Below, piece by piece: positions 34,533-55,566 of a stretch of 58,505 bases of DNA. Made by a program: the position numbers and the translations under genes. How positions within the stretch are numbered: the first letter of the stretch is position 1; each line of letters opens with the position of its first letter. A model generated the notes under the pieces. It was not told the DNA's origin and did not search any database. It was given only the letters and a program-made list of their open reading frames with translations. The DNA is from a bacterium (GTDB lineage: Bacteria; Desulfobacterota; JADFVX01). The stretch is from contig JAVVFD010000002.1 of NCBI GenBank assembly GCA_032250935.1, positions 1 through 58,505 of the forward strand, read 5' to 3'.

Positions 34533-34548
34533 TGGTATGGATGTTGCA
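34533..34548 (+). promoter_or_regulatory. candidate sigma-54 (-24/-12) promoter of the NHL-cytochrome operon
   Basis: TGGTAT-GGATG-TTGCA compared with the consensus TGGCAC-N5-TTGCW. GG and GC are at the correct 12-nt offset. It lies 66 nt upstream of ATG 34614. Confidence 0.4.
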
Positions 34549-34613: not shown

Positions 34614-37600
34614 ATGGTTCGCAAAAAAAGAAAATATACTGGGTTTATTGCTCTGGCGGCGCTTGTTTTATTTGCCCCGCTCGTGGCGATGGCGTATGAG
34701 CCTCCCTCTTTTGAATATGATTCGTCTTTGCAGCTTTCTTATGCCGGGCGCATGGCTCAGGACTTGGAAGGGAATATATATGTTGCCGATTCCAGGCAGG
34801 GTCGGGTCTATGTTTATGATAAGTACGGGCGCAGTGTTGATACCGTAAACACAATAGCTCAGCCTGCAGCGTTGGCGGCGGGTCCTGCCGGATACATATA
34901 TGTTGCATCACCTCATGGCGTGTATCTCTTGGGTGATAACGGGCAGGCGAGCTCCGTTATCGGTCAGGAAAACTTTGATTCTCCTGTCGACATGGCGATT
35001 GATGCGGCAGGGCAGATTTATCTGCTTGATAGCGGGACTCGTTCGATCAGGGTTTTTACCTCTACAGGTGTTAGTTTGGGAGAATTTGCAGGAGGCTCCG
35101 GTAAATACCCGGTTTCTCTTGCTGTGGGAGTGGATACTGTTTCCGGCGAGGAGTTGGTTTATGTTGGATATTCTGTTGAGTCACTTGATGCCGTTAACAC
35201 GGAAATAGTCATGGTCTTTGACTTGAACTATAATTTGGTCAGATCTTTCGGATCGGCGGTGAAGCTTGCTATATCCGATTCGGGTGCGCCCTCTGGAGAG
35301 GTAGCCAAGGCCGCTGAAATTGCTATCGATGATTTTGGTCGTGTATATCTTGCCGATACCTATGGTAAAAGAGTTGATATCTACAGTGAAAGGGGCGATT
35401 TTCTTGGCGAATATTCTGTCCGTGGCGATAGTTCTCCGGTTAATCTGCTTTTCGATCTGTATGGCAGGCTCTTTGTGTCTCTCTCTTCGGGTAGGATAGA
35501 TATTCTGTCTGTTGATGGTATGAACGTGGCGAATGTTATTCCTACTGCGCCATCGCTTCTTTCTCCGATAGGTGGCATGCGCATTGTATCGGCCACTCCT
35601 GAGCTTGTTGCCGGGAATTCTTCTGATCCCAATATGGATACTCTGGTTTATGAATTTGAGCTTGCATCTGACCCGTCTATGACTAGTAACGTATGGTCTT
35701 CCGGCCCGGTTGCAGAGGGGGGGGATGGATATACTTCGTCCTCTGTCGGCGTAGCTCTGGAGGAAGATCGGGAGTATTTCTGGCGGGTGAGGAGCTTTGA
35801 CGGGACTGAATATTCCCGCTATAGTTATGTTACCAGATTCTTCGTCAATGCAATTAACAGTGCTCCATCGTTTGATTCTTATTCTCCAGAATCCGATAGT
35901 GTTTATGGTTTGTCAGTCGGAGAAACAGTTGGCTTTGCCACAACGGTTAGCGACTCTGACAGGGATAAACTTGCAGTAGCCTGGTTCTTAAACGGTGTTG
36001 AGATTTCCAGCGGTACATCATATTCATATCTGGCGGTAAAAGGCGATGTGGGTGAAAATGTCGTCAAGGTGGTTTTGGCTGACGGTGAGTTTGATGTTGA
36101 GAGGCAGTGGAATGTGACTGTCATGAGACCTAACACGGCTCCTACCTCTCCAGCCCTTAACTCACCTGTCGGTTCTGAGGATGTTCTTAGTGTAAGGCCC
36201 GAACTTTCTATCAGTAACTCCTTTGATGCGGAAGGTGATGCCCTTGTCTATACATTTGAAGTAAGCAGGACAGACAATTTTAGTGACATCGTAGCGACTA
36301 TAAACGATGCTCCTTCCGGGGAAGGTTTTACCATTGCATCGGTGGGCGCAGATCTTGTTGAAAACAGTTTGTATTACTGGAGGGCGAGGGCCTGTGAGAC
36401 TCCTTCGACCGGATCTTTTGTGGCTCAGTACTATTGCAGTAATCCTTCGGCTACGGGCAGTTTTGTTGTAAATACCGTTAATGATCCTGTGGGCGCGCCT
36501 GCTGTCGCCTCTCCTGCTGATGCTGTGCATGTTAATACGCTTGATGGGCAGCTTGTGCTTAGCGTAGATAATGCTATAGATCCAGATTTGAATGACATTG
36601 TTGTCTATGATTTTGAGCTTGCGCTGGATGCGGCCTTTTCGGCTGTGATTTCGCACAATGAAGGGGTTGTTGAGAATGAGACGGGTTCAAGTTCATTTGC
36701 AGTGACAGCGGAATTTGAGGAAAACAGGACCTATTACTGGAGGGCCAGAGCCTCCGATGCGCAGACAGTCAGCGCTTGGGTGTCTACATCCTTTTTTGTT
36801 GATAATTATAATGATGCTCCCACAACTCCTATGGTTGATTCTCCCGTTATGGGGGCGGAGTCGCTTTCATTAAACCCCGTTTTGTCGGTGATTAATTCAG
36901 GGGACCTTAATGGCGATACGCTTTCCTATATCTTTGAAATCGACTCTGCTGAAAATTTCAGTGGCCCTGCAAGGCAGAGATCCGGTCTTATTACCGAAGC
37001 GGATACCATTACATCCTGGGCTACTGTCGCTCCCCTCCTTGATAATACCAGGTATTACTGGAGGGTGAAGGCCAGTGACGGTGTTTCGGAGAGCGGATGG
37101 TCAGTAGTAAATGAGCTTTTTGTTAATCTGTCAAATGACGCCCCCACCGCGCCAGTAGTTAAAGCGCCTTCCGGTGGTGTTGCGGTCAATAGCAATACTC
37201 CTGAGCTGACTGTTTACGCTGCAAACGATTTGGATGCTGATTTGCTGGGGTATAGATATCAGCTTTCAAGAACGGAAAGCTTTTCTTCGGTCGATATTGA
37301 GTCCGGCCTTGAGGGTCTTGCCTGGAATGTTGACGCGCAACTTGAGGAGAACGCCACTTATTACTGGAGATCCAGGGCGATAGATGAGCATGGTCTTTCC
37401 GGCGCATGGTCCGCAAAGGGCCAGTTTATGGTTAATGTAGTAAATGAACACCCCAGCGCTCCAGTGGCTGGTTCTTACACCTATAACTCCGGAGATGAGG
37501 TGCTTCTTCAGATAGGAAGCGCCGTCGACCCCGACGGGGATACTCTGAGCTATTTCGTTGAGCTTTATTCTGACAGGGGTATGACAGCAATTGCATACTC

Positions 37601-37799
37601 TGAAGAAGCTGTTGCCGGGGGCGCGGAAACTATCTCTAATGCCGGCGTCCTTAATCCTGGAGTCTATTACTGGAGGGTAAGGGCCTTTGACGGTGAAGTC
37701 TTCGGAAGCTGGAGCGATACAAGGATAATCAGGGTTAACACTCCCGGACTCACTGGACATGATCGTGCTGATAAGGCCCAAGGGCATAAAAGGTTCTAA
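34614..37799 (+). CDS. secreted NHL-repeat beta-propeller protein with an Ig-like domain and six FN3-like tandem repeats
   Basis: Signal peptide (ALAALVLFAPLVAMA). NHL-like blades: IYVADSRQGRVYVYDKYG, IYLLDSGTRSIRVFTSTG and VYLADTYGKRVDIYSERG. These are followed by six repeats of about 100-120 aa each. Confidence 0.8.
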   Translation: MVRKKRKYTGFIALAALVLFAPLVAMAYEPPSFEYDSSLQLSYAGRMAQDLEGNIYVADSRQGRVYVYDKYGRSVDTVNTIAQPAALAAGPAGYIYVASPHGVYLLGDNGQASSVIGQENFDSPVDMAIDAAGQIYLLDSGTRSIRVFTSTGVSLGEFAGGSGKYPVSLAVGVDTVSGEELVYVGYSVESLDAVNTEIVMVFDLNYNLVRSFGSAVKLAISDSGAPSGEVAKAAEIAIDDFGRVYLADTYGKRVDIYSERGDFLGEYSVRGDSSPVNLLFDLYGRLFVSLSSGRIDILSVDGMNVANVIPTAPSLLSPIGGMRIVSATPELVAGNSSDPNMDTLVYEFELASDPSMTSNVWSSGPVAEGGDGYTSSSVGVALEEDREYFWRVRSFDGTEYSRYSYVTRFFVNAINSAPSFDSYSPESDSVYGLSVGETVGFATTVSDSDRDKLAVAWFLNGVEISSGTSYSYLAVKGDVGENVVKVVLADGEFDVERQWNVTVMRPNTAPTSPALNSPVGSEDVLSVRPELSISNSFDAEGDALVYTFEVSRTDNFSDIVATINDAPSGEGFTIASVGADLVENSLYYWRARACETPSTGSFVAQYYCSNPSATGSFVVNTVNDPVGAPAVASPADAVHVNTLDGQLVLSVDNAIDPDLNDIVVYDFELALDAAFSAVISHNEGVVENETGSSSFAVTAEFEENRTYYWRARASDAQTVSAWVSTSFFVDNYNDAPTTPMVDSPVMGAESLSLNPVLSVINSGDLNGDTLSYIFEIDSAENFSGPARQRSGLITEADTITSWATVAPLLDNTRYYWRVKASDGVSESGWSVVNELFVNLSNDAPTAPVVKAPSGGVAVNSNTPELTVYAANDLDADLLGYRYQLSRTESFSSVDIESGLEGLAWNVDAQLEENATYYWRSRAIDEHGLSGAWSAKGQFMVNVVNEHPSAPVAGSYTYNSGDEVLLQIGSAVDPDGDTLSYFVELYSDRGMTAIAYSEEAVAGGAETISNAGVLNPGVYYWRVRAFDGEVFGSWSDTRIIRVNTPGLTGHDRADKAQGHKRF
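35541..37742 (+). repeat. six protein-level tandem repeats (with one Ig-like insert) in the NHL protein
   Basis: Recurrent signature PEL..(D/N)xDxDxLxYxFE...(E/D)N..YYWR(A/V)RAxD....WS....F.VNxxNxAPxxP. It occurs at aa 310-418, 508-628, 629-738, 739-846, 847-949 and 950-1043. The insert is at aa 419-507. Confidence 0.8.
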
Positions 37800-37810: not shown

Positions 37811-38566
37811 GTGAAAAATAAGACTGAATATGCAAAGAGAAGTTATGGACTGCTTTGGATTATTGCCGGAGTTTTGATTGTGGTTGGGTCGGCCAGACCT
37901 GCTTTAGCTGTAAAGGTTATTGATGTGTCAGCTACCAAGCATAATCTTGGTTCCGGTACTCCTGTAACATCAAACTGGTACTCAACTGATGAGTCTGAGG
38001 TATGCGTCTTCTGTCATACTCCTCATAATGCCATAAGTAATTATCCGCTTTGGAACCAGTATTCAACTACGATGAGCTTTACAGTTTACAGCAGTGGAAC
38101 CCTTACGGCCGGTGTTTATGCTACCGGACTTCTTCCAGCAAACTCCATGTCCAGGCTCTGTCTTTCCTGTCATGAAGGGACTATCGCGATAAACGCTCTT
38201 GCTAATCCCGGCAGTACTGTCGGCAGGCCTGCGATGGCAGGTGGGATCTCCGGTGATCAGTTTTCAGATGTTTTGCCAGCTGGGGCGGGCGCCTATCTGT
38301 CTTCTGACCTTTCTGCCATGCACCCGATCGGTTTCGACTATAACCTCTCCGATGCCGGTGACCCGGAGATTAATGATATTACCACCGGGCCGCTTGCGCA
38401 GGGCTTGAAGTTTATCAAGGGCGCGGGGGGAGAGGATTTTCTAGAATGCGTGACCTGTCACGATCCACACGTTAATGGAGAGGCAACGGGTGATCCGGAC
38501 TATAAATTCTTTTTACGCATACCGAATAAATCAAGTGCACTTTGCTTGGCCTGTCATAATAAGTGA
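37811..38566 (+). CDS. secreted tetrahaem cytochrome c, 'doubled/paired CXXCH' type
   Basis: GTG start behind an AGGAGA RBS, with a signal peptide ending ALA-VK. Motifs are CVFCHTPHN, CLSCH, CVTCHDPH and CLACH. The KHNL...CxFCHTPH context is typical of the paired-CXXCH family seen in Geobacter-type cytochromes. Confidence 0.85.
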   Translation: MKNKTEYAKRSYGLLWIIAGVLIVVGSARPALAVKVIDVSATKHNLGSGTPVTSNWYSTDESEVCVFCHTPHNAISNYPLWNQYSTTMSFTVYSSGTLTAGVYATGLLPANSMSRLCLSCHEGTIAINALANPGSTVGRPAMAGGISGDQFSDVLPAGAGAYLSSDLSAMHPIGFDYNLSDAGDPEINDITTGPLAQGLKFIKGAGGEDFLECVTCHDPHVNGEATGDPDYKFFLRIPNKSSALCLACHNK

Positions 38567-38585: not shown

Positions 38586-41500
38586 TTGAAGATGTTGAAA
38601 AATATGAGAGGGATTGTCTGGGTCGCTTTGATTATCTTCGGAGCAGTCCTTCAGCCTCAAAATTCTGATGCCAGGCTGGTCGGGCCCCATGCTACCAAGG
38701 TATGCGGAGACTGCCATTCAGCTGGCTTTGCCAGCATGTTCAATCAGGCTCCTACCTGTATTACAGCCGCCTGTCATATTAATCAGCTTGTAGAGGCAGA
38801 TGCATCTCAACTCTTCAATTATTCAAGCGCGGGCGGTCCCGTTGGGACATCTCACGCCTGGGGGGTTTCCTACACTGAATCCGGCGCCGCAGCAAAAGGA
38901 CCCTCGACTACGCGCCAGACAAGGTATGGTCCGGGCAATCTCGGCTGTTCCTCTTGCCATTATCCACACTATGCGCTTAACAACATTACAAGCCAGCCAC
39001 TTCTCAAGGTGGATAACAGCTCCGATCAACTATGTCTTGATTGCCACAGGGACAGAAATGTAACGAGCGCATCTCCACCTCCGGCCGGCAAACAGGGAAG
39101 TCATCCAGTAGGTCTTACTATCCCCGGGACTACGGCTTATAACAGTCCTCCTCTGAATCCATATTCCAGTATTTCTGGGTCTGAATTGAAATTAGTCGGC
39201 CCTGGTAGCGATACCGTATCATGCTCTACGTGCCACGGTGTGCATTTTGCCGATTCAAATCCCTATACCGCAGCTACGATGGTTGGACTGAGTACTGTTC
39301 CAGGTGGTCAAGGTGTGCTCCTAAGGAGATACAACGATTCACAGCTCTGTAAAGACTGTCACAGGTATCAGCAGCACGGACCTCTTGCCACACCTGCCAA
39401 ATGGCAGGACTGCAGGAACTGTCACGACCCGCACGATCCGGGCGCCAACTTCAAACTGGTAAGGTTTGACAGCTTCAGCGGTCCCGAAGGGTGGGTACAG
39501 GTCACATTCGACAGCCTTACCTCGAATTTTGCCGAGCGTATTGACGGAAAGCAGGGTATATGCGATGCCTGCCATAGTCTTGAGACGACCGGAGTGTTCC
39601 CAGGGTGGAGTTCGGGTCATTTATCAAAAGGGATTAGCAGGTCTTTGGCCTATCAGGCAGATTGTTTGAACTGTCACTCCCATGCGGAAGGTGACGGAAC
39701 AAGTGTCGGCAGTTTTGCTGCCGGCGGCGCGGCTGCCTGCGGTACATGCCACGGATATCCGCCTATGGCGAACTATTCCGGTCCTCCAAGCGGATATGCT
39801 GGCGGGTATAACGGCGCCGGGTCCTTCGTCAACGAGACCACCTCTCCCCACAGGAAACACGCATCCAGCGAGGGGTATGGCTCAAGGTTTGCGGGAAGCG
39901 GTTCCTACGGCACCGCCTGCAAGGCGTGCCACGGCATGCCGGATGAGTCTACTCACCAAACCAAAGTAGTTTATGGTGACTGGGCCTTCAAGCTATACAC
40001 ATGGCCCGGCGGCTCTCCGACATACGCCCAGTCAGGTGGCAACAAGTGGAAGTGTATAAACAACTACTGCCATAGTGACGGCGCGCCCAATGACGTAATC
40101 AGCTACACTACCCCTACGTGGAGTTCATTGCCAGGCACATTAGATTGTAGCGGATGTCATGCAGCAGCTCCTGTGTCCAACAAGCATACAAAGCATATAG
40201 GCGGCGGCGCAGACTACAGTTTCGGGTGCAGGAACTGCCATGTAAATACGGTTGATGACAACTCGACAATCTCTGCTGCTGGTGTGGCAACTTACCACGT
40301 GGACAGAACAAAGAGCGTCTTTTTCGGCGCCACAGCCGTATCCGGTACATACACGGCGGCAACCAAGGATTGCTCAAATACATATTGTCACGGTAACCTT
40401 GCCGACAACCAGGGTAACAACGCAACGCCTACATTCGGCGCTGCCGGAACGGCAACATGCGGCAGTTGTCACGACCTGGCACCGGCAGGCGATATAGCCA
40501 CTCATACGAAGCACGTCCAAACCTATGATTTCGGTTGTGCTTATTGTCACAACGACCTGGTGACGGCGGCCTTTGATACAAAGAGCACTATTGACAACCA
40601 GGCCATGCATGTAAACAACAGTGAAGACGTCAAGTTCGGTAATGACCTGAAGGGCAGGACCAATGCTGCCGGTACATACACAAAGGCGACGGGCAAGTGT
40701 GACACTATTTACTGCCATAGCGCCGGCACATCGACGCTGGCGGCAAATTTCTTCGTCAACGAGTCGACTATATGGAACAGCGCCACCGTAACTTGTGCCA
40801 GCTGTCACGGTAACTCTGTATACAGCGGCATGACTTCCGCCATGCCGAACTATCCGAATGGTCAGGACGGCAAGGAAAACAGCCATGTGAAGCACGTGGT
40901 TAATAACGGTATAGACTGTATCAGTTGTCATGAAGTGACTCTTGCCACCAATGTGACGATAGGTAATTATACTTCACATGTTAATGCCAAATATAATGTG
41001 GATATCAGTGCTACTTACGGCGGTTCCTACGATACCGGTACTCAGACCTGTACAGGCGTTAGTTGCCATGGTGCCGGTGCGCCTGTATGGGGCGCTACGC
41101 TATCATGCGCAGACTGCCATAACGGAGCAGGCGACGTAGATGACTTTGTTTTCGACAATAAGACTACGGCCACCATTAATCAAACACAGTGGGATAACGT
41201 AGGTCATGGACGTACGTCGGCCTTCCCGTCTGGCAACCCGGCCGCAAACCTGGGATGTGCGAACTGTCATGACAGCGGAGTTTCCCACGGAGTTGCAGGC
41301 AACCCCTTCAGGCTCTTCAGTTCCAACCCCGACCAGCTTTGTAATACTTGTCATGGCGTGGGCGGCGCTGCCACCAAGACCGGTGTCTTTACACACAGTT
41401 CCACTACGACTGACGGCAGACATGATTTCAAGATGAAGTGCGTTGACTGTCATGATCCGCACGGTGACGATAACGCGTTCATGATGCACAGCACCCTGCC

Positions 41501-44500
41501 TCAGCCTAACGGCCAGCCGAACTGGGAGCCATCAAACCAGTACGGTATACCGAACGGCGGAGTTACGTGGGAGAATATCGACTTCCCGAATAATGGCGCT
41601 GCCTTCCTTGCGAGTACATCCGTATCAGCGGCAACTGTCAAGGTATGTAACGTTTGTCACAGCAGGACGACAGATGTAGGGATTACGGATTCAAAGAAGA
41701 GATACAGAAAGGATATGAGCGGCGGTATCACAGAAGCGCACTATGTCGGCAACCAGTGTACAACCTCCTGTCATAAGCATACCGCAGGATTCGAGGGTGT
41801 GAGCTGCGAGGGATGCCACGGCATGCCGCCGGAAACGGGCCTCATGCTTCAGGATCTTGGCGCATACGACGCCAGTCCGACCGGCGAGGGGGCGCACGTC
41901 AAGCACGGTTCGATCTTCATCAGCGGGCCCAGGTGTAACGTATGTCACGATAAATCCATCGGCGGTATGGATCCATCGGGAGCGACTAACACCACGATCG
42001 ATATCAACTTCAAGGCCGACAATCAGTTGGGATCCTATACGACGGGTACTTATGACGCGACAGGCGCGGCGCACAATCCTGCGTATAACGGCAGCGTCAC
42101 CACCGGCGGAACATTTGTATGCTCTAACGTCAAGTGTCACGGTTCGGCCCTGACAAGCGGCAACGGCACCGATACCACTCCGGTTTGGAACAACCTTGCC
42201 ACTGGGGCCTGCGGTAAGTGCCACGGCGCCAAGACCGCGCCATCAACGGCTGCGGACGGCGGAACGGGATATCCCGGCTCGGGCGCCCACCAGAAGCATG
42301 CCGGATGGGGAGCAGGCGAGTACGATATCATGTGCCAGACATGTCATGATACGACGCTTACTACGGCCACCACCTTTGTAGAGAGTCTGCATGTTAACGC
42401 CGATACAGGCAGTACGGGTATAGGCATTGAGCCTGCCTACAATGATACGGCAACTGCGTTCAACTATGTAGACGGAACAAATACATGTGAAAACGCAGAC
42501 TGTCACGGCGAGAACAGCGTAGTCTGGACAGCCGGTGCTCAGACCTGTGATAGCTGCCATAACGGCGCCTCTGATGCGGATAACTTCACATACTCCAACC
42601 TGAGCGGCGTTGTTGCGAAAATAAATAACACCGAGTATACGAACAGCGGCCACGGCAGAACTACTGCTTATCCGGTGTCCGGCAACCCGGGCGCAAATAA
42701 GGGATGTACTGATTGCCATACAGCGACCAAGGACCACAGTACCGGGGCCACATATTTCAGGCTTCTTAATACGGATGATCCGAATACGCTATGCCTCAGC
42801 TGTCATGGTTCGGGCGCCGAACTTACCGGTGCATTCGGCACCATAACCGGTTACCAGGGTCATACATATGACAACCTGAGTACGGCAGGTTACACCAACC
42901 TGACTACATGGCACTTTACACCCAAGTGTATCGACTGCCACGACCCGCATGGTGACGGCAACATATTCATGATGCACAGCAAGGTCTCAGACGAGGGCAG
43001 TTCGACTGTTGCGCCTCTCGGTGTGCCGACCAACTTCCCGAATAACTCGACGGTAATCTTCTTGTCAGTTACAGGCGTTAACTCTTATGATGACGGCGAC
43101 GGCACGGCCAACCTCTGTGTTGTATGCCACGACAGGACGAGCCATAACGGAAACAGCGGATCCCATGCTGGTTATGCTGGGCTGGATTGTCGTGGCTGCC
43201 ATGACCATAAGCTCGGATTTACGCCTTCCGGGTGCGACGGTTGCCACGGTCAGGCCGGTGTGCAGATCTATCCGCCCGACGGACCTAATCTCCCGCTTGA
43301 CTGGGCTGAAGAGGCGGCAACGCCTGCATCGGTCGGCTCTCATGAGGCGCATGTCACCAAGCTGAGTTATGCATGCGCAGAGTGTCACGGCGACGGCAAC
43401 GGACAGGACCAGCCTCATGGTACAGGTAAGACCAATGCATACATGAAGAATCTTACATCATTGCATGGCGCGAACTTCACTCCTAACCTTGCGGGTACCA
43501 GCTCAGTTGTCGATGACACCTGTGCAAATGTTGACTGCCACAGTGGTCGCGCCTACCAGAGGTCATGGATTAACAATCCGACCACCTGCGATGCTTGCCA
43601 CGGTGGAAGGACCTCTGACGGGCTCAACCAGATCAGTACTGGCAGCCACGTGAAGCACACAGGCAACGGTGCAACGGAGTACGACTTCCAGTGTACGCTC
43701 TGTCACGTAGACAACACGGGGAACTTTGATCATTATAGTGTTGCCGACGTGGATCTGAACTTCACAGGACAGGGCACCGGCAGCTCTTATACGAGAGGAA
43801 CAGGATTTGCAACATTCACTACCGGAGCCGAGTGGGGTACATGTACGAGTGCATGCCACGGTGACGGGTTGCCCAGCTCAAGCAGCGGCACTCCGACATG
43901 GGGCGGGTCTTCGCTAACCTGCGAGAACTGCCACTATGCGACGGGGAACAAGGCCTTAATGAGCGCGCCGCATCCGACCCATCTGAATGCCGGAACCTAT
44001 AACTTCGACTGTTTCAATTGCCACGTACAGACTACTACGGACAATACGACGATCAACAACTACACGGCGCATGTTAACGGGAACCGTAACGTCGATTTCG
44101 ACACATACCTGGACAACGATTCGGGGAGCTTTAACGGAACCGCGACCAAGCAATGTCTCAACATCTACTGTCACAGCAACGGTACGGATACCGACGGCGT
44201 GGGACCATTCCCGATGGGGAACTTCACGGCGGACTGGGACGGAGCGACGCAGGGGTGCAAGTACTGCCACGGCGACGAGACCCTGGGCGGCTGGACTTCT
44301 GCAATGCCGAACTACGCCAACGGCGCGCCGAAGGCGAACAGTCACGCCAAGCATGTCAACGGCGGATACCAGTGCATCGACTGCCACGAGGTGACTCTGG
44401 CGACGAACGCCGCGATAGGGAACTATACCGCGCACATCAACGGCAACTACAATATTGACATAAACGCCTCTTATGGTGCGTCCGCAGCCTATACTCCCGG

Positions 44501-45767
44501 AACGAAGGTCTGCTCCAATGTGGACTGTCACGGCGGAAATCCCGTGACATGGGGTGATCCGAATGTAAATTGCTTTACCTGCCACAACGGAACCGATGAC
44601 GGAGCTGGAACTATGAAGCCATATTCCACCACCGGCAACGGGCCTAATGTTGTCAACTTTGTACAGTATACTACCGTAGGGCACGGCCTGAATACGGGCT
44701 CAACCTATAAGTATAGCGCTCTAAATGGCGCCGGTAAGTGGAATTCTTCCGGTCAGGGTTGCTACTCAGGTGATCCGCAGACGGGCTGTCATTCAGCTGC
44801 AGCGGGCCATATCACCAAAAATCCTGCCGATCCGTTCAGGCTCGGTGCATGGGCAGATGATATTGACGGACTATGCGCGACCTGCCACAACTCTGCGCAG
44901 GCTTCGAGCCATTCAGCGGCTGTAACCGGTAACCCGAAAGGCAGGACGTGGCCCTACGTGCCGAAATGTGTAGACTGTCATGACCCGCACGGGGACGCCA
45001 ATATACGCATGATCAGGAGTTCCATCAATACGCCATCCTCCGGTTCCGACTGGACCACCGGAGGCGGAAGCAACTCCAAGGGTGTGCCAACGACTAACGG
45101 CACTATTAAGGATGTTACCTTTACAAACAACAGCGGCTTCTCAAAGGCGGGTGGTTTTGCCGGTGTGGATGCGGCTGCCGCCGACGGTATCTGTGAGGTC
45201 TGTCATACCAACAATGCCGCTATAGGCACTATTATCAACTGGTACAACGCGCAGGGGGACGACAACAATACAAACCACGTCTCCAATGCGGGAAAGGCGT
45301 GCTCCAACTGTCACCAGCATGACGGAGGGTTCGCCGCATCGGGCGGGTCGTGCGACAGCTGTCACAGCTGGCCGCCCAAGATTGGTGACGGGAGCGATTA
45401 TATGTCTGCTGAACAGGAAGGGAAGGGGCGTCATAGTTCTCACTTTGTCCATCTCTCCAGTCTCTCTGCCGCGCCTTTTGTTAACGTATCCGCTGCTACA
45501 GCTGCAGGCTATGGTCAGGGAATTAATGCTGAAATTTGCGGGACCTGCCATAGTAATGATGAATCAGCTGACCACCAAAAGGGAGGTCGAAACATCAACT
45601 TCGGCGCACCTTCAAACACGCTTGAATATTCCTTCGACGGAACGGCGCCGTTCTATAACGGATCGACCTCCGTATCTTCGGCAACGAGGATGAAGAACTG
45701 TTCCAATGTGAGATGTCACTTCCAGAATAGCCCCGGATGGCAAGACCCATCCGAGCCGAAGATTTAG
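38586..45767 (+). CDS. giant modular secreted multihaem cytochrome c (2393 aa)
   Basis: Hand count on the translation gives 46 CxxCH, 11 CxxxxCH, 2 CxxxCH and 1 Cx8CH. It has a signal-peptide-like N-terminus (IVWVALIIFGAVL). ATG 38592, with a GGAGGA RBS 8 nt upstream, is probably the real start rather than TTG 38586. I see no TM anchor or lipobox. Confidence 0.9.
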   Translation: MKMLKNMRGIVWVALIIFGAVLQPQNSDARLVGPHATKVCGDCHSAGFASMFNQAPTCITAACHINQLVEADASQLFNYSSAGGPVGTSHAWGVSYTESGAAAKGPSTTRQTRYGPGNLGCSSCHYPHYALNNITSQPLLKVDNSSDQLCLDCHRDRNVTSASPPPAGKQGSHPVGLTIPGTTAYNSPPLNPYSSISGSELKLVGPGSDTVSCSTCHGVHFADSNPYTAATMVGLSTVPGGQGVLLRRYNDSQLCKDCHRYQQHGPLATPAKWQDCRNCHDPHDPGANFKLVRFDSFSGPEGWVQVTFDSLTSNFAERIDGKQGICDACHSLETTGVFPGWSSGHLSKGISRSLAYQADCLNCHSHAEGDGTSVGSFAAGGAAACGTCHGYPPMANYSGPPSGYAGGYNGAGSFVNETTSPHRKHASSEGYGSRFAGSGSYGTACKACHGMPDESTHQTKVVYGDWAFKLYTWPGGSPTYAQSGGNKWKCINNYCHSDGAPNDVISYTTPTWSSLPGTLDCSGCHAAAPVSNKHTKHIGGGADYSFGCRNCHVNTVDDNSTISAAGVATYHVDRTKSVFFGATAVSGTYTAATKDCSNTYCHGNLADNQGNNATPTFGAAGTATCGSCHDLAPAGDIATHTKHVQTYDFGCAYCHNDLVTAAFDTKSTIDNQAMHVNNSEDVKFGNDLKGRTNAAGTYTKATGKCDTIYCHSAGTSTLAANFFVNESTIWNSATVTCASCHGNSVYSGMTSAMPNYPNGQDGKENSHVKHVVNNGIDCISCHEVTLATNVTIGNYTSHVNAKYNVDISATYGGSYDTGTQTCTGVSCHGAGAPVWGATLSCADCHNGAGDVDDFVFDNKTTATINQTQWDNVGHGRTSAFPSGNPAANLGCANCHDSGVSHGVAGNPFRLFSSNPDQLCNTCHGVGGAATKTGVFTHSSTTTDGRHDFKMKCVDCHDPHGDDNAFMMHSTLPQPNGQPNWEPSNQYGIPNGGVTWENIDFPNNGAAFLASTSVSAATVKVCNVCHSRTTDVGITDSKKRYRKDMSGGITEAHYVGNQCTTSCHKHTAGFEGVSCEGCHGMPPETGLMLQDLGAYDASPTGEGAHVKHGSIFISGPRCNVCHDKSIGGMDPSGATNTTIDINFKADNQLGSYTTGTYDATGAAHNPAYNGSVTTGGTFVCSNVKCHGSALTSGNGTDTTPVWNNLATGACGKCHGAKTAPSTAADGGTGYPGSGAHQKHAGWGAGEYDIMCQTCHDTTLTTATTFVESLHVNADTGSTGIGIEPAYNDTATAFNYVDGTNTCENADCHGENSVVWTAGAQTCDSCHNGASDADNFTYSNLSGVVAKINNTEYTNSGHGRTTAYPVSGNPGANKGCTDCHTATKDHSTGATYFRLLNTDDPNTLCLSCHGSGAELTGAFGTITGYQGHTYDNLSTAGYTNLTTWHFTPKCIDCHDPHGDGNIFMMHSKVSDEGSSTVAPLGVPTNFPNNSTVIFLSVTGVNSYDDGDGTANLCVVCHDRTSHNGNSGSHAGYAGLDCRGCHDHKLGFTPSGCDGCHGQAGVQIYPPDGPNLPLDWAEEAATPASVGSHEAHVTKLSYACAECHGDGNGQDQPHGTGKTNAYMKNLTSLHGANFTPNLAGTSSVVDDTCANVDCHSGRAYQRSWINNPTTCDACHGGRTSDGLNQISTGSHVKHTGNGATEYDFQCTLCHVDNTGNFDHYSVADVDLNFTGQGTGSSYTRGTGFATFTTGAEWGTCTSACHGDGLPSSSSGTPTWGGSSLTCENCHYATGNKALMSAPHPTHLNAGTYNFDCFNCHVQTTTDNTTINNYTAHVNGNRNVDFDTYLDNDSGSFNGTATKQCLNIYCHSNGTDTDGVGPFPMGNFTADWDGATQGCKYCHGDETLGGWTSAMPNYANGAPKANSHAKHVNGGYQCIDCHEVTLATNAAIGNYTAHINGNYNIDINASYGASAAYTPGTKVCSNVDCHGGNPVTWGDPNVNCFTCHNGTDDGAGTMKPYSTTGNGPNVVNFVQYTTVGHGLNTGSTYKYSALNGAGKWNSSGQGCYSGDPQTGCHSAAAGHITKNPADPFRLGAWADDIDGLCATCHNSAQASSHSAAVTGNPKGRTWPYVPKCVDCHDPHGDANIRMIRSSINTPSSGSDWTTGGGSNSKGVPTTNGTIKDVTFTNNSGFSKAGGFAGVDAAAADGICEVCHTNNAAIGTIINWYNAQGDDNNTNHVSNAGKACSNCHQHDGGFAASGGSCDSCHSWPPKIGDGSDYMSAEQEGKGRHSSHFVHLSSLSAAPFVNVSAATAAGYGQGINAEICGTCHSNDESADHQKGGRNINFGAPSNTLEYSFDGTAPFYNGSTSVSSATRMKNCSNVRCHFQNSPGWQDPSEPKI

Positions 45768-45770: not shown

Positions 45771-48700
45771 GTGTCGGAGATGATTATTAAAAATAGCATT
45801 CAAAAGCTCTCAAGGAACAATCAAAGGCGACTAAAAGATGGAGAAGTTAGAGAGATGACCGGTGTAACTGAAAACAACCTAAACTCCAAAGGGAGAAGTG
45901 CTATGCGGAACTTTTTGAAATCTCTTGCTTTGCTGAAGGGATCAATAGGAAAGATTGAAGGGGTACGGGAAAGATCTGTACCGAGTCGGTCCAAGATCGC
46001 TCCACTGGTCTTGAGCCTCTCTCTTTGTATCGCTTTTTTTTCTGTGACAAGCAGCGCGAATGCTGCGGAAGAGTTTCTCAGTGTTGACAGTAATGGGGCC
46101 AGCTCCGGTTGGGGGGGGGCATGGACCGATGTACAATTCTCTGATGGAACCGCTATAGGACCAGCCGCAAAAAATGCCAGGTCCACCTTCGGATTAACTG
46201 CACCGACAGGAACCGGTGTCATCACAAATGTGGCCGTCATAGCAGAATGTATGGACGCCGGAGGCCCGGAGATGATAAACGGTGTTGTCAGAACCGGCGG
46301 TACCGATTATCTTGGAACTTCTGTGTCAATGACTGGCGCTTATTCTGAATATCAGTTTGACTGGGCAACAAATCCTGGTGGTGGTAACTGGACATGGGCT
46401 CAGCTTGCTGCTCTTGAGGCCGGCGTTGAAGCGACAGCCAGTGGAGGTTGGGGGGGGACTCCGCTATGTAACTTTATTACTGTTATGGTTACATATGTTC
46501 CGCAGACTCAGGATCTGACGCTCTTTGAGGATATTTCATATGATGAATATACCCCTGTCTCAGATGTTCCTTTGGCAAAGGTGAGGACCAGTTCAGGCGG
46601 GGACATTGTCGGGAACGGATATAGCGTTACAGCTGTTACAGTAACACTGGGTGATGGTGGAGGTACACCACTTAGCCCCACCGGCCCTATTAACGTCTAT
46701 TATTCCACTATTGATGATTTAGTCACAGCGAAGAGCGGCGGTTCTAAAGGGATATGTGCCTCCCCTGTTGTGGGCACTCCATGTAATTTCGCTCTTTCCG
46801 GTATCGGTAATGAGACAGGTTATATGTTTTTCACCATTGATCTCGTATCAGGCGCCCTTGGAGATTATGATTTAACAGTATCAAGTTTCACCATTGGCGG
46901 CGCTTCCACGGACCTGATACCTCTGCCCAAGACGACGGCAGCGAAAAGCGTAAAACCGCCTACTCAGACACTTGACTACTTTTTCGACTACGCCCAGAGG
47001 TACAGGGCTAATGTGACTGCGCCAGTTACGGATCTCCTTCTTGCGAGAATAAATACGAACGCGACAAGTGAAGGGAAGCCGTTTGCCAACGTGAGTGCAG
47101 GTGTTTTCGGAACTATTTCATCAATTGATAATCTAAGGGTCTGGTGGAATACGACAGAAGATTTTGGAAGTGCAACGAAAATAGGTGAAGTTCTTGCTCC
47201 TACGCGAGATACGCTTTATAATATCGACATGACACTAAATGGTGGAGGGGGGTATGTGCGGGGATATATTTATTTCTCTATTAGCATGCCTGATGCCGGT
47301 AACAACGGCGGGTATTCCCTCCATATTAATAGCATGAGGGACAATAAGGGACCTGCCGATGACAACCTCCCTCTTCCGCGGAATACTACGACGAACTATC
47401 TGATTGATCCCTATAAGATCCAGGTCTGTGCTGAATGTCATGCCTATCCTCCCTATGACGCGCCTGCAACGAGGGGTACGCCGACAGGCGCGGTGCTTGG
47501 AAACCATTCTGCGCATGCAAGGTTCAACATGATGAAGTGTTCCAGCTGCCATGGAGATACGACGTCGGGTGAGTCGGACCCTGCTCATAGAAATAACTAT
47601 GTTGAACTCAGGAACCCTCTGGGTCCGCCTTCAGGCGCAGGCGTCTATTCCAGGGGCTACACATTCGCGCAGTCTACAACGACCACTCTGGGTACATGCT
47701 CTGCTATCGAATGCCATAACGGCATCGCCCAGACATGGGGGACGTCGAATACCATGGTCTGTAACGATTGTCACCTTTCTGGATCGGCTGATACTGACGA
47801 CTTTACATACGATGAATTCACCTCCACTGCAGTACCGAGGTTGTATTCATCCGAATGGGCATATTCAGGGCATGGAAAGTCTTCGGGTAACTACGACCTG
47901 ACGGGTAATCCGGCTGCTGGATTGGACTGCACTAATTGTCATGACTCTACACTTCCTCACGGTGATTCGATCATTCCTTACAGGACGAAGGCAACTGGAA
48001 ACATGGACATTTTCTGTCAAAATTGTCACGGTACGTCAGCAGAGATAGGCTCTCTCTTTACAACGGTTTCAACTGTTGCCAGGGGTATCAAGACCCACTC
48101 CAGGGGCGTGTTTATAGAAGAAAACTATAAGAGCCTTGGAACGTGGAGGGTTGAGACCCTTAAATGTATTGATTGTCACGATCCGCATGGGGACGGCACA
48201 AGTGGCAGCGGCAACAAGGGGATGCTTCACAAGCAGGTATGGACCGGTGGCAGCGACACTAAGGGACGCCCACTGCCTTTCGATGCCGGTTATTCAACCG
48301 TCGTCTTCAACAGCCCCACCGGTGTTGGGGGATACGGTAATAATGACGCCGCAACGACTTACATCTGCGAGGTCTGTCACTCAACTACCTCTTTCCATCA
48401 GCGTAACGGAGGAGGTACGGCCCATTTCGAAGGGATTAGATGCCCCGACTGTCACCAGCATGACAAAGGCTGGGCGCCTTACGAGGAGTGTACCGAATGT
48501 CACGCTGTTCCGAGGAACTATCTCTATAACGTAAGACAGATCGTAGAGAAGGATGGCGATGGCGCTGGTGACTTTGTAAAATTAAGCCGTCACGTGAGCA
48601 ACGGTACGGCCACCGAGATAGTTACCTCTTTTGACTGTGTCGTCTGCCACGCCGAGGGTGATTACGCTAAAGTCAATCTTAACGCCGGCTTCACTAGCGC

Positions 48701-49826
48701 TACTTTACATAACGACGGATCTACATCTGGAGTTTCAGCAGCAACCGACAGGAAAGTTCACCTGAGGGATGTTGATAACCCTGACTCTTACTTTATCTGG
48801 AATAAGAATGAATCAAATGCCGCCACCAAAGAGACATATAGAACAAATATGGACAACTTCTGCATGGCCTGCCATGATACTGACGGTGCATCGGGTATTG
48901 CCGTTAACGCCGGTGACAATGGTCTTGATCTGACGCCGACCGCTGATATCGCACTCAAGCCTTTCAACTCGAATGATACTATCAGAAACGGCAGGGACGG
49001 TTTTACAAGCAGAACAAGGGTAGTCGATGTATGGGATCAGTTCAATCCCGGTTCTGGTGGCTCCGGTGCCGGTTATAACGGAAACCCCTCTCAGCATGGC
49101 GTTCGTGGCGCAAGGTACAGTACGAAAAACGCCGGATGGAACGCCTCTAACGGCGGTGCTTGGACGACACATACTCTGAAAGACGGGACAACAGTGCTTG
49201 GTGGTGCAGGTGGAGCCGGTGAGACGGCGATGCTTCACTGTTCAGACTGCCATCTCTCCGAAACGAACGCACATGGCGCAACGAACGCATGGCATATGCT
49301 CCTCAACGGTACGGTAAACGATCACACCTCCGATACCGTAATGGGTGGACAGCTCGATACGACCACATCATCAGTCGTATGCTACAAGTGCCACAACTCA
49401 GGTGTCTATTCTAACTCTGCCAGTACACTTCCGAGATGGTCCCATGATGACGACGGCAACGTATGGGGCAGATCATATGGTAATGAACTAGGAGACAAGG
49501 GTAACGAACTCGGCCCAACATGCCTGCAGTGCCATGCTGGTGATGGTTTCGGACGTATTCACGGACGTGGTTCGGCCACAGACGGTGACCAGGGCGCTAC
49601 CTACGGTACAAATATAGGTACCTATGGAAAATACAGGTTTATGCCCGGCGCATACCAGAGCATATCACCCGGAACGAACGCTGATGATACAGCATGGACC
49701 CAGGGAAGCGGGACCGCCATGACATGCTACCTGACTCCAAATTCAACATGGTCCGGATGCTCTCAGCATAGTGGCGCAAAGTCCGGTGGTGGAACTGCCA
49801 ACTATGGCAGGGCATTGACATATTAA
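45771..49826 (+). CDS. chimeric secreted protein: non-haem beta-rich N-terminal region + multihaem cytochrome c C-terminal region
   Basis: 14 CxxCH plus 1 CxxxxCH, all located after aa 550. The likely true start is ATG 45903 (MRNFLK..), with a GGGAGA RBS 6 nt upstream. A signal-like segment LVLSLSLCIAFFSVTSSANA-AEE follows it. Confidence 0.85.
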   Translation: MSEMIIKNSIQKLSRNNQRRLKDGEVREMTGVTENNLNSKGRSAMRNFLKSLALLKGSIGKIEGVRERSVPSRSKIAPLVLSLSLCIAFFSVTSSANAAEEFLSVDSNGASSGWGGAWTDVQFSDGTAIGPAAKNARSTFGLTAPTGTGVITNVAVIAECMDAGGPEMINGVVRTGGTDYLGTSVSMTGAYSEYQFDWATNPGGGNWTWAQLAALEAGVEATASGGWGGTPLCNFITVMVTYVPQTQDLTLFEDISYDEYTPVSDVPLAKVRTSSGGDIVGNGYSVTAVTVTLGDGGGTPLSPTGPINVYYSTIDDLVTAKSGGSKGICASPVVGTPCNFALSGIGNETGYMFFTIDLVSGALGDYDLTVSSFTIGGASTDLIPLPKTTAAKSVKPPTQTLDYFFDYAQRYRANVTAPVTDLLLARINTNATSEGKPFANVSAGVFGTISSIDNLRVWWNTTEDFGSATKIGEVLAPTRDTLYNIDMTLNGGGGYVRGYIYFSISMPDAGNNGGYSLHINSMRDNKGPADDNLPLPRNTTTNYLIDPYKIQVCAECHAYPPYDAPATRGTPTGAVLGNHSAHARFNMMKCSSCHGDTTSGESDPAHRNNYVELRNPLGPPSGAGVYSRGYTFAQSTTTTLGTCSAIECHNGIAQTWGTSNTMVCNDCHLSGSADTDDFTYDEFTSTAVPRLYSSEWAYSGHGKSSGNYDLTGNPAAGLDCTNCHDSTLPHGDSIIPYRTKATGNMDIFCQNCHGTSAEIGSLFTTVSTVARGIKTHSRGVFIEENYKSLGTWRVETLKCIDCHDPHGDGTSGSGNKGMLHKQVWTGGSDTKGRPLPFDAGYSTVVFNSPTGVGGYGNNDAATTYICEVCHSTTSFHQRNGGGTAHFEGIRCPDCHQHDKGWAPYEECTECHAVPRNYLYNVRQIVEKDGDGAGDFVKLSRHVSNGTATEIVTSFDCVVCHAEGDYAKVNLNAGFTSATLHNDGSTSGVSAATDRKVHLRDVDNPDSYFIWNKNESNAATKETYRTNMDNFCMACHDTDGASGIAVNAGDNGLDLTPTADIALKPFNSNDTIRNGRDGFTSRTRVVDVWDQFNPGSGGSGAGYNGNPSQHGVRGARYSTKNAGWNASNGGAWTTHTLKDGTTVLGGAGGAGETAMLHCSDCHLSETNAHGATNAWHMLLNGTVNDHTSDTVMGGQLDTTTSSVVCYKCHNSGVYSNSASTLPRWSHDDDGNVWGRSYGNELGDKGNELGPTCLQCHAGDGFGRIHGRGSATDGDQGATYGTNIGTYGKYRFMPGAYQSISPGTNADDTAWTQGSGTAMTCYLTPNSTWSGCSQHSGAKSGGGTANYGRALTY

Positions 49827-49858: not shown

Positions 49859-49886
49859 GGGGGATCGTAAGATCCCCCTTTTTTTT
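49859..49886 (+). terminator. Rho-independent terminator closing the NHL-cytochrome operon
   Basis: GGGGGATC-gtaa-GATCCCCC, an 8-bp GC-rich stem, followed by T8. Confidence 0.85.
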
Positions 49887-50041: not shown

Positions 50042-50617
50042 ATGAATGGAAGTAAAATAAAGTCATTCCTCTTCGCTATAGTGATCGCATTTTTTGCGTC
50101 AGTTATCTCCAACTGGCCCGGAGCATTTGCAAATTTGAGCTTCAAATTAGGCCTTTATGACCAGAAATCGGAAGAAGAAGAGGTTAAAATGGCCGTTAAG
50201 CAATATAATATCAACAGCGCCCAGTTTTACAATACTGCAGGAGAGGATAAGTCCGCTCTGCCGATTATCCCCGCCGCCCCCCTTCTTAAACGGAGACTAT
50301 TCAAGGATATTAATACGCTCAAAAAGGACGGCCTCCTTATCGTTTTTGACAGGGACCGTGACGAGTTTTTAAATATATATTTCCCCAGGAGAGACCTAGC
50401 CGTTGCGGAAACTAGAGAAGTCTGGGCCATGGTGCTTCAGGATGTTAAAACGAGGGAGCCAAGAACGACGGTTAAGGCAGAGAGTGTGAAAGTCCGCTAT
50501 GTCTTAAAAAAGGAAGCTTATTCAAGACTTGGATTGGTCTGGGTTGTCTACGAGGCGGATGTATACCCCGATGATGAAAGAGCTATACCTCCTTTAAATA
50601 TAAAGCCTGTTTTATAG
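50042..50617 (+). CDS. membrane-anchored protein of unknown function (paralogue A)
   Basis: 191 aa with one N-terminal hydrophobic helix (FLFAIVIAFFASVI) and then a soluble alpha/beta-looking domain. It shows weak hand-aligned similarity to the 55033-55566 product. Confidence 0.6.
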   Translation: MNGSKIKSFLFAIVIAFFASVISNWPGAFANLSFKLGLYDQKSEEEEVKMAVKQYNINSAQFYNTAGEDKSALPIIPAAPLLKRRLFKDINTLKKDGLLIVFDRDRDEFLNIYFPRRDLAVAETREVWAMVLQDVKTREPRTTVKAESVKVRYVLKKEAYSRLGLVWVVYEADVYPDDERAIPPLNIKPVL

Positions 50618-50760
50618 ATAAGCGACTAAGAGTTTTTGAATCTGGTGTCTTATTTATTCTTCTAATGCCGACTACAATAAAAGTAGTTTTCCATCAAGTT
50701 GGATGGCTCAAGTTTTAGCGGCTCATTGGATATAAAGGGATACTATAAATTAAAAAATAA

Positions 50761-53262: not shown

Positions 53263-53350
53263 AAAAGATCTTAAGATGGACTGATTTCTGAAAGAGTGCT
53301 ATTATCAAGTCTTGCATATAATAAAACTTCAACGAATGTAGATAATTAAA

Positions 53351-54220: not shown

Positions 54221-54267
54221 TTACAGATAAAAACAGTCGATCATAGATTTTGAAAGGAGGATTGAGC

Positions 54268-55008: not shown

Positions 55009-55032
55009 ATATATTTTTATAAATTAATTATC

Positions 55033-55566
55033 GTGAGTATAGTAAAAAAAACTCTGCTTATGTTTGGCGCTTCATTGGCGCTTTTTTTCATCTTTGCCTT
55101 CATAGATGAGTATGAGAATCTTTTTGGAGCAGGCAAGGACAATCTTCTTATCACTGTCGATCCTTATGAAATAGAAGAGACTCTCAATCGTTATATTGAG
55201 AAACTTTCTGCCGCCTATCTGCATGCCTCTTCCGATGCAATCAAAGAAATTCCGCAGACAGATGATCTCAGAAAAGAGCTTGAAGAGGATATCATGTTCC
55301 TTGAAAGAGATGGAAGAATTCAGCACTACCAGGTAAGAAGTCTGTGGCTTCAAAATGTCAACCAGGTTGCAGCCGATAAGGTGAGGGCTTCCACAAGCGA
55401 ACTCATATCCGTACGGTACCTCGACTCATCGGATAGTTCCGAACTCAGGTCTCTCCCGGAAGCAGTTTTTAACATGAGCTATGTCCTTGAATATGGTAAA
55501 AAGGGATGGGTTGTTTCACGCTATGATGTAGTGAACATTGCAGCAAGTTCCAAAGAGGGTCAATGA
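55033..55566 (+). CDS. membrane-anchored protein of unknown function (paralogue B)
   Basis: 177 aa with one N-terminal helix (LLMFGASLALFFIFAFI). The shared blocks with the 50042 product are YN/YI..A.Y, L+K.L..DI..L.+DG, and YVL......WVV...DV. Its stop overlaps the next start (ATGA). Confidence 0.6.
   Translation: MSIVKKTLLMFGASLALFFIFAFIDEYENLFGAGKDNLLITVDPYEIEETLNRYIEKLSAAYLHASSDAIKEIPQTDDLRKELEEDIMFLERDGRIQHYQVRSLWLQNVNQVAADKVRASTSELISVRYLDSSDSSELRSLPEAVFNMSYVLEYGKKGWVVSRYDVVNIAASSKEGQ

Follow-up and report, generated by a model that had tools for sequence, protein, structure and literature searches.

How one bacterial gene comes to specify 60 haem-binding motifs in a single polypeptide, and what such a protein would do, is the question raised by contig JAVVFD010000002.1 of the Desulfobacterota assembly GCA_032250935.1 (GTDB lineage JADFVX01). 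The whole 58,505-nucleotide (nt) stretch, positions 1 to 58,505 of the forward strand, was analysed and is called the window. The protein encoded by the giant cytochrome gene of the window belongs to a large family that has been recognised before yet is biochemically unstudied; its size is ordinary for that family, and its haem count by itself adds little, since larger relatives are already present in the databases and in the literature. The part worth following is the conserved linkage of the gene to one for an OmcE-like cytochrome subunit, often beside ResB/CcsA genes. We consider it probable, though well short of certain, that the giant is an exported cytochrome that carries, and can transiently store, electrons over tens of nanometres together with the partners encoded in the same cassette; this reading is built from sequence comparison and gene order.

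The gene and the segment that would direct its product out of the cytoplasm are placed as follows.

38592..45767, + strand: giant cytochrome gene, 2391 amino acids (aa) from ATG, 60 haem-binding motifs
38592..38672, + strand: Sec-type signal peptide of the giant, MLKNMRGIVWVALIIFGAVLQPQNSDA, the sole hydrophobic 19-mer of the protein

The longest open reading frame (ORF; 38586-45767, + strand) opens at a TTG and runs for 2393 residues without an internal stop. The ATG at 38592 is preceded by a GGAGG (38579-38583) at a distance of 8 nt, whereas only 2 nt separate this GGAGG from the TTG at 38586, and the database entry of the protein has 2391 aa. Because the spacing favours the ATG and the record agrees with it, the real product is most likely the 2391-aa protein starting at 38592, which holds the same 60 motifs. 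A sequence-only reading of the window had listed 46 CxxCH, 11 Cx4CH, 2 Cx3CH and 1 Cx8CH in the 2393-aa frame, and a regular-expression count on the translation agrees exactly. All 120 cysteines fall inside these motifs, and 67 of the 127 histidines are left over after the 60 motif histidines. By our arithmetic, the composition of the protein would yield ~0.3 CxxCH by chance; the 60 motifs are therefore a genuine multihaem cytochrome signature. CxxCK motifs are absent from the protein. With one haem per 40 residues, the mature protein would weigh ~246 kDa as apoprotein and ~283 kDa with 60 haems.

The signal peptide, whose hydrophobic segment is followed by SDA, was judged by inspection and a hydropathy scan, and its cleavage site was set by eye. 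No cysteine occurs in or after it besides those of the haem motifs, hence no lipobox was found, and the N-terminus is kept in the orthologues P0002-P0005. The GC content of the gene is 0.54 against a background of ~0.46, with a GC at third codon positions of 0.58, in or near the range of housekeeping genes. Horizontal transfer was considered as the source of this difference and set aside: the excess sits at codon position 2 because the protein is rich in Gly, Ala, Thr and Cys, and it is therefore no evidence of recent transfer.

The internal order of the protein is given by two kinds of module, a trihaem unit (U) and a hexahaem unit (S). These were delimited by aligning the segments between motifs and then with hidden Markov models (HMMs) built from the units, and module coordinates are in the 2391-aa numbering. 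Behind the signal peptide and a 9-motif head, the modules run 4U-S-2U-S-4U-S-U.

38673..39722, + strand: head, ~350 aa, 9 motifs (8 CxxCH and 1 Cx4CH), S-like, with doubled CXXCH and CRNCHDPHDPG
39723..41072, + strand: U1-U4 trihaem modules (aa 378-827), where the best TIGR01904 and PF22113 stretches lie
41088..41789, + strand: S1 hexahaem module (aa 833-1066), S-HMM E 5.5e-118
41790..42509, + strand: U5-U6 trihaem modules (aa 1067-1306), from alignment and U HMM
42528..43217, + strand: S2 hexahaem module (aa 1313-1542), S-HMM E 5.1e-100
43218..44534, + strand: U7-U10 trihaem modules (aa 1543-1981), from alignment and U HMM
44553..45329, + strand: S3 hexahaem module (aa 1988-2246), carrying the Cx8CH, from alignment and S HMM
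45336..45722, + strand: U11 trihaem module (aa 2249-2377), from alignment and U HMM

The alternation of U and S modules had been described from the sequence alone, with ten or eleven U units and three S modules. That description stands in its outline: eleven U units are present (TIGR01904 marks 10 stretches), and the three S modules fall in the regions proposed. Two details need correction. The U unit, ~100 aa long, ends with the Cx4CH site rather than beginning with it, reading CxxCH..HxKH..CxxCH..H(V/I)N..GTY..Cx4CH with the final site replaced by Cx3CH in two units, and the N-terminal region, which had been called octahaem, holds nine motifs. Each U unit offers three conserved non-motif histidines for its three haems. 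The S unit, in its three copies, reads CxxCHNG..D.D, GHG...GNP..CxxCH, LCxxCHG, KC(I/V)DCHDPHGD.N, C.VCH, CxxCH.H..GF. The head matches the S HMM weakly (aa 51-165), opens with a conserved histidine 6 residues ahead of its first CxxCH, and is colinear with the head of the corresponding giant of Desulfuromonas sp. DDH964.

Across 17 U-S-U segments from different proteins, all 12 motif pairs are invariant. The histidines of HxxH and HVN never vary either, and in the S module the same holds for four more histidines and a methionine. With conserved histidines numerous enough, the haems of the giant would look to be mostly bis-His ligated. The Cx8CH of S3 (CYSGDPQTGCH) is a loop expansion of an ordinary CxxCH position: S1 and S2 both have a plain CxxCH there, and P0002 has a Cx6CH. 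Modules are 25-43% identical to each other in protein (these identities come from BLAST of the protein in chunks; whole-protein self-BLAST gave the identity match alone), and the module pattern suggests that the giant arose by old duplications of trihaem U and hexahaem S modules behind a 9-haem head.

Two metagenomic orthologues indicate how these features are maintained. P0003 (3545 aa, 79 motifs, locus L081) is 66% identical and colinear over aa 1-1559 of the giant, and P0002 (3099 aa, 78 motifs, locus L082) is ~50-51% identical and colinear over aa 1-1555 plus aa 838-2391; both are larger than the giant through added blocks of modules. Against P0003, 80 of 80 cysteines and 81 of 84 histidines are kept, with other residues at 63.5%. 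The two alignments with P0002 keep 79 of 80 and 78 of 78 cysteines, and 77 of 84 and 79 of 85 histidines. Because cysteine and histidine are kept nearly throughout while other residues are conserved at 47-64% across these alignments, the haem ligands appear to be under strong purifying selection. In P0002 (L082, 1254-10553), an S-U-U-S block corresponding to aa 838-1555 is duplicated, the copies sharing 62% aa identity and a stretch of 905 nt at 88% DNA identity. This implies that the haem number shifts by block duplication over short evolutionary times. Such duplicate module blocks are a real assembly hazard in relatives of the giant.

Family models place the protein firmly. It scores 179.7 bits against TIGR01904 (cut-off 27; 10 stretches, E 6e-54), 52 bits against PF09698 (cut-off 21.7; 5 stretches), 115.7 bits against PF22113, the MtrC/MtrF pentahaem domains II/IV (cut-off 30; 4 stretches, best at aa 622-785), and 182 bits, over the cut-off, against PF14522 (cytochrome c7). 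For the doubled CXXCH models, the score is 39.9 bits with PF09699 (cut-off 20.6; 3 stretches) and 19.9 with TIGR01905 (cut-off 25.2). The CxxxxCH...CXXCH repeat family named in the sequence-only reading is borne out by TIGR01904/PF09698, above their curated cut-offs; for the doubled CXXCH motif named there, the Pfam model passes its cut-off and the NCBIfam model falls short of its own. Scores stay below the cut-off for TIGR04257 (nanowire_3heme; 16.7 against 40) and for the DmsE/MtrA model TIGR03508 (54.9 against 192). By these comparisons, the giant, a predicted secreted multihaem c-type cytochrome, is a clear member of the CxxxxCH/CxxCH (TIGR01904) family.

Sixty haems had been thought exceptional, a view that does not survive comparison with the relatives. 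More motifs than in the giant are found in 23 of the 120 first homologues. Among 242 retrieved relatives, 52 have at least 60 motifs, 18 at least 80 and 6 at least 100, the largest carrying 151 motifs in 5264 aa. In a search with a U-S-U profile, 6417 representatives of 50%-identity clusters match at E≤1e-3, of which 1255 reach E≤1e-30, and the mixed U/S architecture is common, examples being Anaeromyxobacter oryzae, Deferrisoma camini and Geobacter argillaceus. In the literature, a 2016 paper described DSOUD_0664, a 69-motif cytochrome from 'Desulfuromonas soudanensis' WTL (PMC4914508), Desulfuromonadia are credited with counts of 69 and 53 (PMC11492766), Rifle genomes encode cytochromes with 45-53 haems (PMC7399161), and a 2026 preprint lists peat cytochromes with 3 to 116 motifs (bioRxiv 10.64898/2026.05.27.727921).

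What sets the locus apart is the company that the gene keeps. All genes between 34.6 and 57.7 kb lie on the + strand, and the giant is the third of four genes in a predicted operon (same strand, 11-135 nt between genes, terminator from 49859) that encodes, in order, an NHL/Ig protein, an OmcE-like tetrahaem cytochrome, the giant and a 15-haem cytochrome.

34533..34548, + strand: sigma-54-type promoter candidate, TGGTATGGATGTTGCA (-24 GG, -12 GC), 66 nt 5' of the operon's first gene
34614..37799, + strand: NHL/Ig protein gene, first of the cassette, 1061 aa, secreted, with an N-terminal NHL beta-propeller and repeated Ig/FN3-like domains
37811..38566, + strand: OmcE-like tetrahaem cytochrome, 251 aa, directly upstream of the giant with a 25-nt gap
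45903..49826, + strand: second large cytochrome, 1307 aa from ATG 45903, which has a ribosome-binding site and a signal peptide of its own
49859..49886, + strand: intrinsic terminator, GGGGGATC-GTAA-GATCCCCC then T8, closing the four-gene operon

In a phmmer search of PDB sequences, the 251-aa tetrahaem protein matches 7TFS_A (E 4.2e-27) and 9YUQ_N (E 5.2e-26) over nearly its whole length; we take 9YUQ to be the OmcE bundle of D. soudanensis presented in bioRxiv 10.1101/2025.10.22.684050. It has 4 CxxCH and exactly 8 histidines (those of TKH, TPH, MHP and DPH plus the four motif histidines), which align with those of OmcE. The entry 7TFS is OmcE, from which Geobacter builds an extracellular cytochrome filament; an interfacial haem of OmcE filaments takes a histidine ligand from the adjoining subunit (PMC12954529).

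The first protein of the operon has Pfam matches to NHL, SGL, Ig_Rha78A_N and PhoD_N and matches NHL-domain entries of the PDB (E 2e-9). It carries one N-terminal hydrophobic segment and no lipobox cysteine. The last, the 1307-aa cytochrome, has 15 haem motifs, among them one U-like and one S module (S-HMM E 4e-36, aa 614-856). Its haem-free N-terminal ~500 aa (45903-47450) have no match in Pfam, NCBIfam or the PDB and may form a binding or anchoring domain. A mechanical ORF of this gene starts at 45771, in the frame of the giant and separated from it by a single TAG, and its first 44 codons look non-coding. Fusion or read-through between the two genes was considered and rejected, given the ribosome-binding site, ATG and signal peptide at 45903 and the same two-gene arrangement in L082, where a 1305-aa orthologue follows the giant. 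The added length of P0003 shows no homology to the 15-haem cytochrome outside the S module of the latter.

The sigma-54-type match at 34533..34548 is by itself not above chance across the window. A TGG-N9-TTGCA element nevertheless recurs in four loci (the window, L081, L083 and L085), each time 81-110 nt ahead of the NHL gene. In the window, the cassette lies just downstream of an hpf-ptsN-hprK-EIIA(Man)-HPr-ptsI (PTS-Ntr) group.

The pairing of the two cytochrome genes is not confined to the window. An OmcE-like gene adjoins a giant in the window, in the metagenomic loci L081 and L082, in Desulfuromonas sp. DDH964 (L083) and in Geothermobacter hydrogeniphilus (L085), and, by locus-tag numbering, in D. 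soudanensis WTL (DSOUD_0663/0664). L081 and L082 share the neighbourhood of the window, from gltX through ptsI in the former and down to ResB/CcsA in the latter; L081 lacks a separate second cytochrome after its giant. DDH964 encodes a 993-aa NHL homologue (28% identity, E 2e-24), an OmcE-like protein of 259 aa, a giant of 2653 aa with 74 motifs and a cytochrome of 1763 aa. The corresponding proteins of G. hydrogeniphilus have 1013 aa (NHL), 260 aa (OmcE-like) and 2744 aa (the giant, with 71 motifs). In locus L084, NHL and OmcE-like proteins are present and the contig then ends. An NHL-type gene takes the same position in L081, L084, L085 and the Anaeromyxobacter oryzae locus L089, which encodes an NHL/PKD protein and a 5-haem protein ahead of a giant of 2629 aa, with ResB and CcsA after it. 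Not every lineage shows the link to OmcE: in A. oryzae, the cytochrome encoded at the corresponding place (358 aa) is not clearly OmcE-like, and the giants of Deferrisoma camini stand in another context, alternating with Big_1/invasin-like proteins.

For D. soudanensis WTL, DSOUD_0663 is described as OmcE-like (bioRxiv 10.1101/2025.10.22.684050) and the adjacent DSOUD_0664 as having 69 motifs (PMC4914508); from these adjacent locus tags in two papers, we infer that the same cassette is present. Giants of this lineage are thus consistently co-encoded with an OmcE-like tetrahaem cytochrome, a long NHL/Ig protein and a second large cytochrome, and the cassette exists in cultured strains, namely DDH964, G. 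hydrogeniphilus and, by this reasoning, D. soudanensis WTL. The cassette offers a concrete hypothesis for the role of giant multihaem cytochromes and for how cytochrome filaments start or end.

The host itself is placed by its GltX, which is 85-90% identical to metagenomic proteins including that of L081, ~70% to those of 'Deltaproteobacteria/Proteobacteria' metagenome-assembled genomes (MAGs) and ~63% to those of Geobacter species. This would make it an uncultured lineage allied to Desulfuromonadia with ~46% GC. With the giant as query, no match was returned from the GTDB species genomes.

A further requirement of a c-type cytochrome, the attachment of haem, has candidate genes close by. Two System II pairs sit at most 6 kb downstream of the cytochrome operon.

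51853..54220, + strand: first System II pair, ResB-like protein of 469 aa and CcsA-type protein of 289 aa (PF05140 E 3.6e-32, PF01578 E 2e-34)
54250..57684, + strand: ankyrin-repeat protein, 177-aa ORF and second ResB/CcsA pair, the pair at 55563-56849 and 56863-57684

The CcsA of the first pair scores 158.7 bits against TIGR03144, under the cut-off of 187.6, and the second pair is more diverged, with 101.6 bits for its CcsA against the same cut-off. The giants of L082 and L089 likewise have a ResB/CcsA pair after them, and that of L081 has a ResB gene after it. In Desulfuromonadia, resB-ccsB adjoin the omcE region as shared synteny (bioRxiv 10.1101/2025.10.22.684050). The pairs of the window could be lyases dedicated to the Cx4CH or Cx8CH sites, or simply the general system.

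In the reading that we favour, the apoprotein of the giant would be exported by Sec, and ResB/CcsA proteins, possibly those of the adjacent pairs, would then attach haem at the outer face of the inner membrane. The resulting ~283-kDa holoprotein would reside in the periplasm, on the cell surface or further out, where its closely packed haems would carry, and transiently store, respiratory electrons over tens of nanometres. Together with the other three products of the cassette (OmcE-like cytochrome, NHL/Ig protein and 15-haem cytochrome), it would exchange electrons with minerals outside the cell or with partner cells. The distance can be gauged from cytochromes of known length: MtrA spans ~8 nm with 10 haems, OmcS ~4.7 nm with 6 and GSU1996 ~12 nm with 12. 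On this basis, 60 haems in line would possibly span roughly 50-60 nm if the chain is extended, so that the tens of nanometres proposed in the sequence-only reading for a single-polypeptide haem wire are possible in that conformation, and that reading is reasonable. DSOUD_0664 is predicted to be extracellular (PMC4914508), as are cytochromes with 30-53 haems (PMC7399161), and AlphaFold models of long Desulfuromonadia cytochromes are wire-like (PMC11492766).

Several points weigh against this reading. The adjacent ResB/CcsA genes may be the general maturation genes of the organism. Family scans of the neighbours recognised no porin, beta-barrel or secretion-system gene in the cluster, which leaves the passage of a 283-kDa holoprotein, or of its electrons, across the outer membrane unexplained. 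AlphaFold2 models of parts of the giant are of low confidence, both for U4-S1-U5 from a 17-sequence alignment (predicted local distance difference test, pLDDT, 40; predicted template modelling score, pTM, 0.25) and for U3-U4 from 30 U-U pairs (pLDDT 53, pTM 0.40), and a Foldseek search of the U3-U4 model against the PDB gave 0 matches. Given such models, no geometric conclusion, linear or compact, is drawn for the giant.

The alternative that survives best keeps the export and the haem chain and shifts the emphasis. The giant would then serve mainly as an extracytoplasmic store, taking up to 60 electrons per molecule, so that respiration continues without a reachable acceptor. Storage is one of two roles that the literature proposes for many-haem cytochromes (PMC11492766, PMC7399161, PMC10734462); it would suit the very high haem density of one per 40 residues, and the failure to find a porin in the cluster would fit a protein kept in the periplasm. 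The giant could, however, both store and conduct, and co-transcription with an OmcE-like filament homologue and a surface-type NHL/Ig protein points outside the cell, where relatives are also predicted to be (PMC4914508). As the main function of the giant, we regard storage as unlikely.

A second alternative, which we hold to be quite unlikely, gives the OmcE-like neighbour the leading part, with the giant coupled to an OmcE-like filament, either at the cell-proximal end as base or anchor or at the distal end as tip. An N-terminal histidine or a head haem of the giant would complete the interfacial coordination that is unsatisfied at the filament end. The two genes are adjacent (25-nt gap), predicted to be co-transcribed, and adjacent in six loci; the tetrahaem protein keeps exactly the 8 histidines of polymerising OmcE, whose interfacial haem uses a histidine of the neighbour (PMC12954529). 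The giants of the cassettes share a histidine 6-7 residues past the predicted cleavage site, in the pattern G-x-H-x4-C-x-x-C-H, and the OmcE preprint calls the filament tip and the terminator proteins unknown (bioRxiv 10.1101/2025.10.22.684050). Such a basis consists of gene neighbourhood and motif inspection, and other observations speak against the idea: the cryo-EM map of the filament abundant in D. soudanensis was not matched by DSOUD_0663 (bioRxiv 10.1101/2025.10.22.684050), a canonical omcE cluster (L086) has no giant cytochrome, and two features reported for omcE clusters, a large beta-barrel and lipoprotein propellers, are missing from the cassette. The bolder form of the idea, in which the cassette would build a composite appendage of a second OmcE-like filament class and the giant would cap, nucleate or anchor the polymer, is in our view a long shot; if true, it would answer what sits at the ends of cytochrome nanowires.

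A catalytic role is very improbable. The giant would in that case be an oxidoreductase acting on nitrogen compounds, sulfur compounds or metal oxyanions, its haem chain feeding an active-site haem, and the unusual Cx8CH and the invariant S-module methionine could mark specially ligated haems. Yet no catalytic multihaem family is significantly matched, models of NrfA, HAO and octahaem enzymes being absent or far below cut-off; the protein has no CxxCK and consists of pure repetition of modules of the electron-transfer, bis-His type; and the Cx8CH is the expanded loop described above. Scarcely credible is an ORF produced by mis-assembly of collapsed or expanded repeats, a worry raised in the sequence-only reading, or a decaying pseudogene: module number does vary among orthologues and recent duplicates of the P0002 type could in principle be collapsed, but nothing points to a perfectly collapsed duplicate in the window. 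At best, 58 nt of the gene match another part of it, at 79% DNA identity, tandem repeats worth mention are absent and modules this diverged in protein and DNA leave nothing to confuse an assembler, while the frame stays open for 7.2 kb with all 120 cysteines in motifs, and independent assemblies agree in colinearity, in cysteine and histidine conservation and in the synteny of the whole locus.

Some other genes of the window deserve mention. Between the cytochromes and ResB lie two conserved genes.

50042..51777, + strand: 191-aa secreted protein and 338-aa protein with four hydrophobic segments

Scans with Pfam and NCBIfam gave no family match for either protein. In L082, counterparts of 188 and 341 aa stand at the same positions, matched by length and position alone. 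The ankyrin-repeat protein (54250-55008) has 252 aa and matches Ank_2 with E 5e-45, and L082 has a 256-aa gene at the same position, for which no family match is recorded. On the - strand, 17755-21287 encodes a CysN/CysC fusion (653 aa) beside a Sat/APS-kinase-like bifunctional protein (516 aa), both of sulfate activation. The closest relatives of CysNC in species genomes are mostly from Planctomycetota at ~60% identity, with the best, at 72%, in a Rifle 'Deltaproteobacteria' MAG; this suggests that the gene may have been acquired by lateral transfer.

Returning to the giant as a probable extracytoplasmic electron carrier, its nearest counterparts are the giants of D. soudanensis (DSOUD_0664), DDH964 and Geothermobacter, which belong to the same family and have modules of the PF09698 and TIGR01904 type. 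With the DDH964 giant, the N-terminal head is colinear and the identity is 26% over ~1250 aligned columns (E 4e-48). The order of a ~1000-aa NHL/Ig protein, a 250-260-aa OmcE-like protein and the giant is common to DDH964, Geothermobacter and the window, as is the sigma-54-type promoter. The differences are that these giants are only ~26% identical to that of the window, that the number and order of modules differ, and that they have more haems; directly upstream of the cassette, DDH964 and Geothermobacter have a sigma-54-dependent kinase/regulator pair, whereas the window has the PTS-Ntr genes.

The OmcE clusters of Geobacter and Desulfuromonas are similar in that a beta-propeller protein, two further multihaem cytochromes and resB/ccsB are likewise near. 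The canonical omcE cluster, however, has two small propeller lipoproteins, a large beta-barrel and modest cytochromes (bioRxiv 10.1101/2025.10.22.684050), and the example in L086 encodes small propeller proteins, a 655-aa cytochrome and a 607-aa unassigned protein that may be a beta-barrel, with no giant. The cassette of the window instead has a single 1061-aa non-lipoprotein NHL/Ig protein and the 60-haem giant, and family scans gave no candidate beta-barrel gene between 34.6 and 57.7 kb, a stretch in which the haem-free N-terminal part of the 15-haem protein and the 191-aa protein carry no assignment. With the porin-cytochrome conduits (Pcc/PCC3/Uet), the NHL protein is shared, being a component of Uet clusters (PMC10734462); family scans of the neighbours found none of the other Uet components in the cluster of the giant.

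Structural relatives are distant, and sequence detects no solved structure for any member of the family. A sequence search of the PDB with the whole giant gave no match, and the U-S-U profile gave weak ones, the best being 3OUQ (E 1.7e-8), followed by Hmc (1.5e-7) and 6R2Q_A (2.8e-7), an entry labelled 'Cystathionine beta-synthase' in the PDB that we take to be MtrA of the MtrCAB complex. 3OUQ is a domain of GSU1996, the 12-haem c7 polymer of G. sulfurreducens, which follows the same design of one polypeptide made of repeated trihaem units. The U module differs from its ~75-aa c7 domain in being ~100 aa long with a Cx4CH, and GSU1996 has no S modules. Compared with MtrC, OmcA and MtrF, the U-U pairs of the giant match PF22113, although the giant has no lipobox, no beta-barrel domains I/III and no gene for an MtrB-type porin, and carries six times more haems in a repeated arrangement. 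Its likely role, handing electrons along bis-His haems outside the cytoplasm, would be that of MtrC, OmcA, MtrF and MtrA, yet it belongs to a different family.

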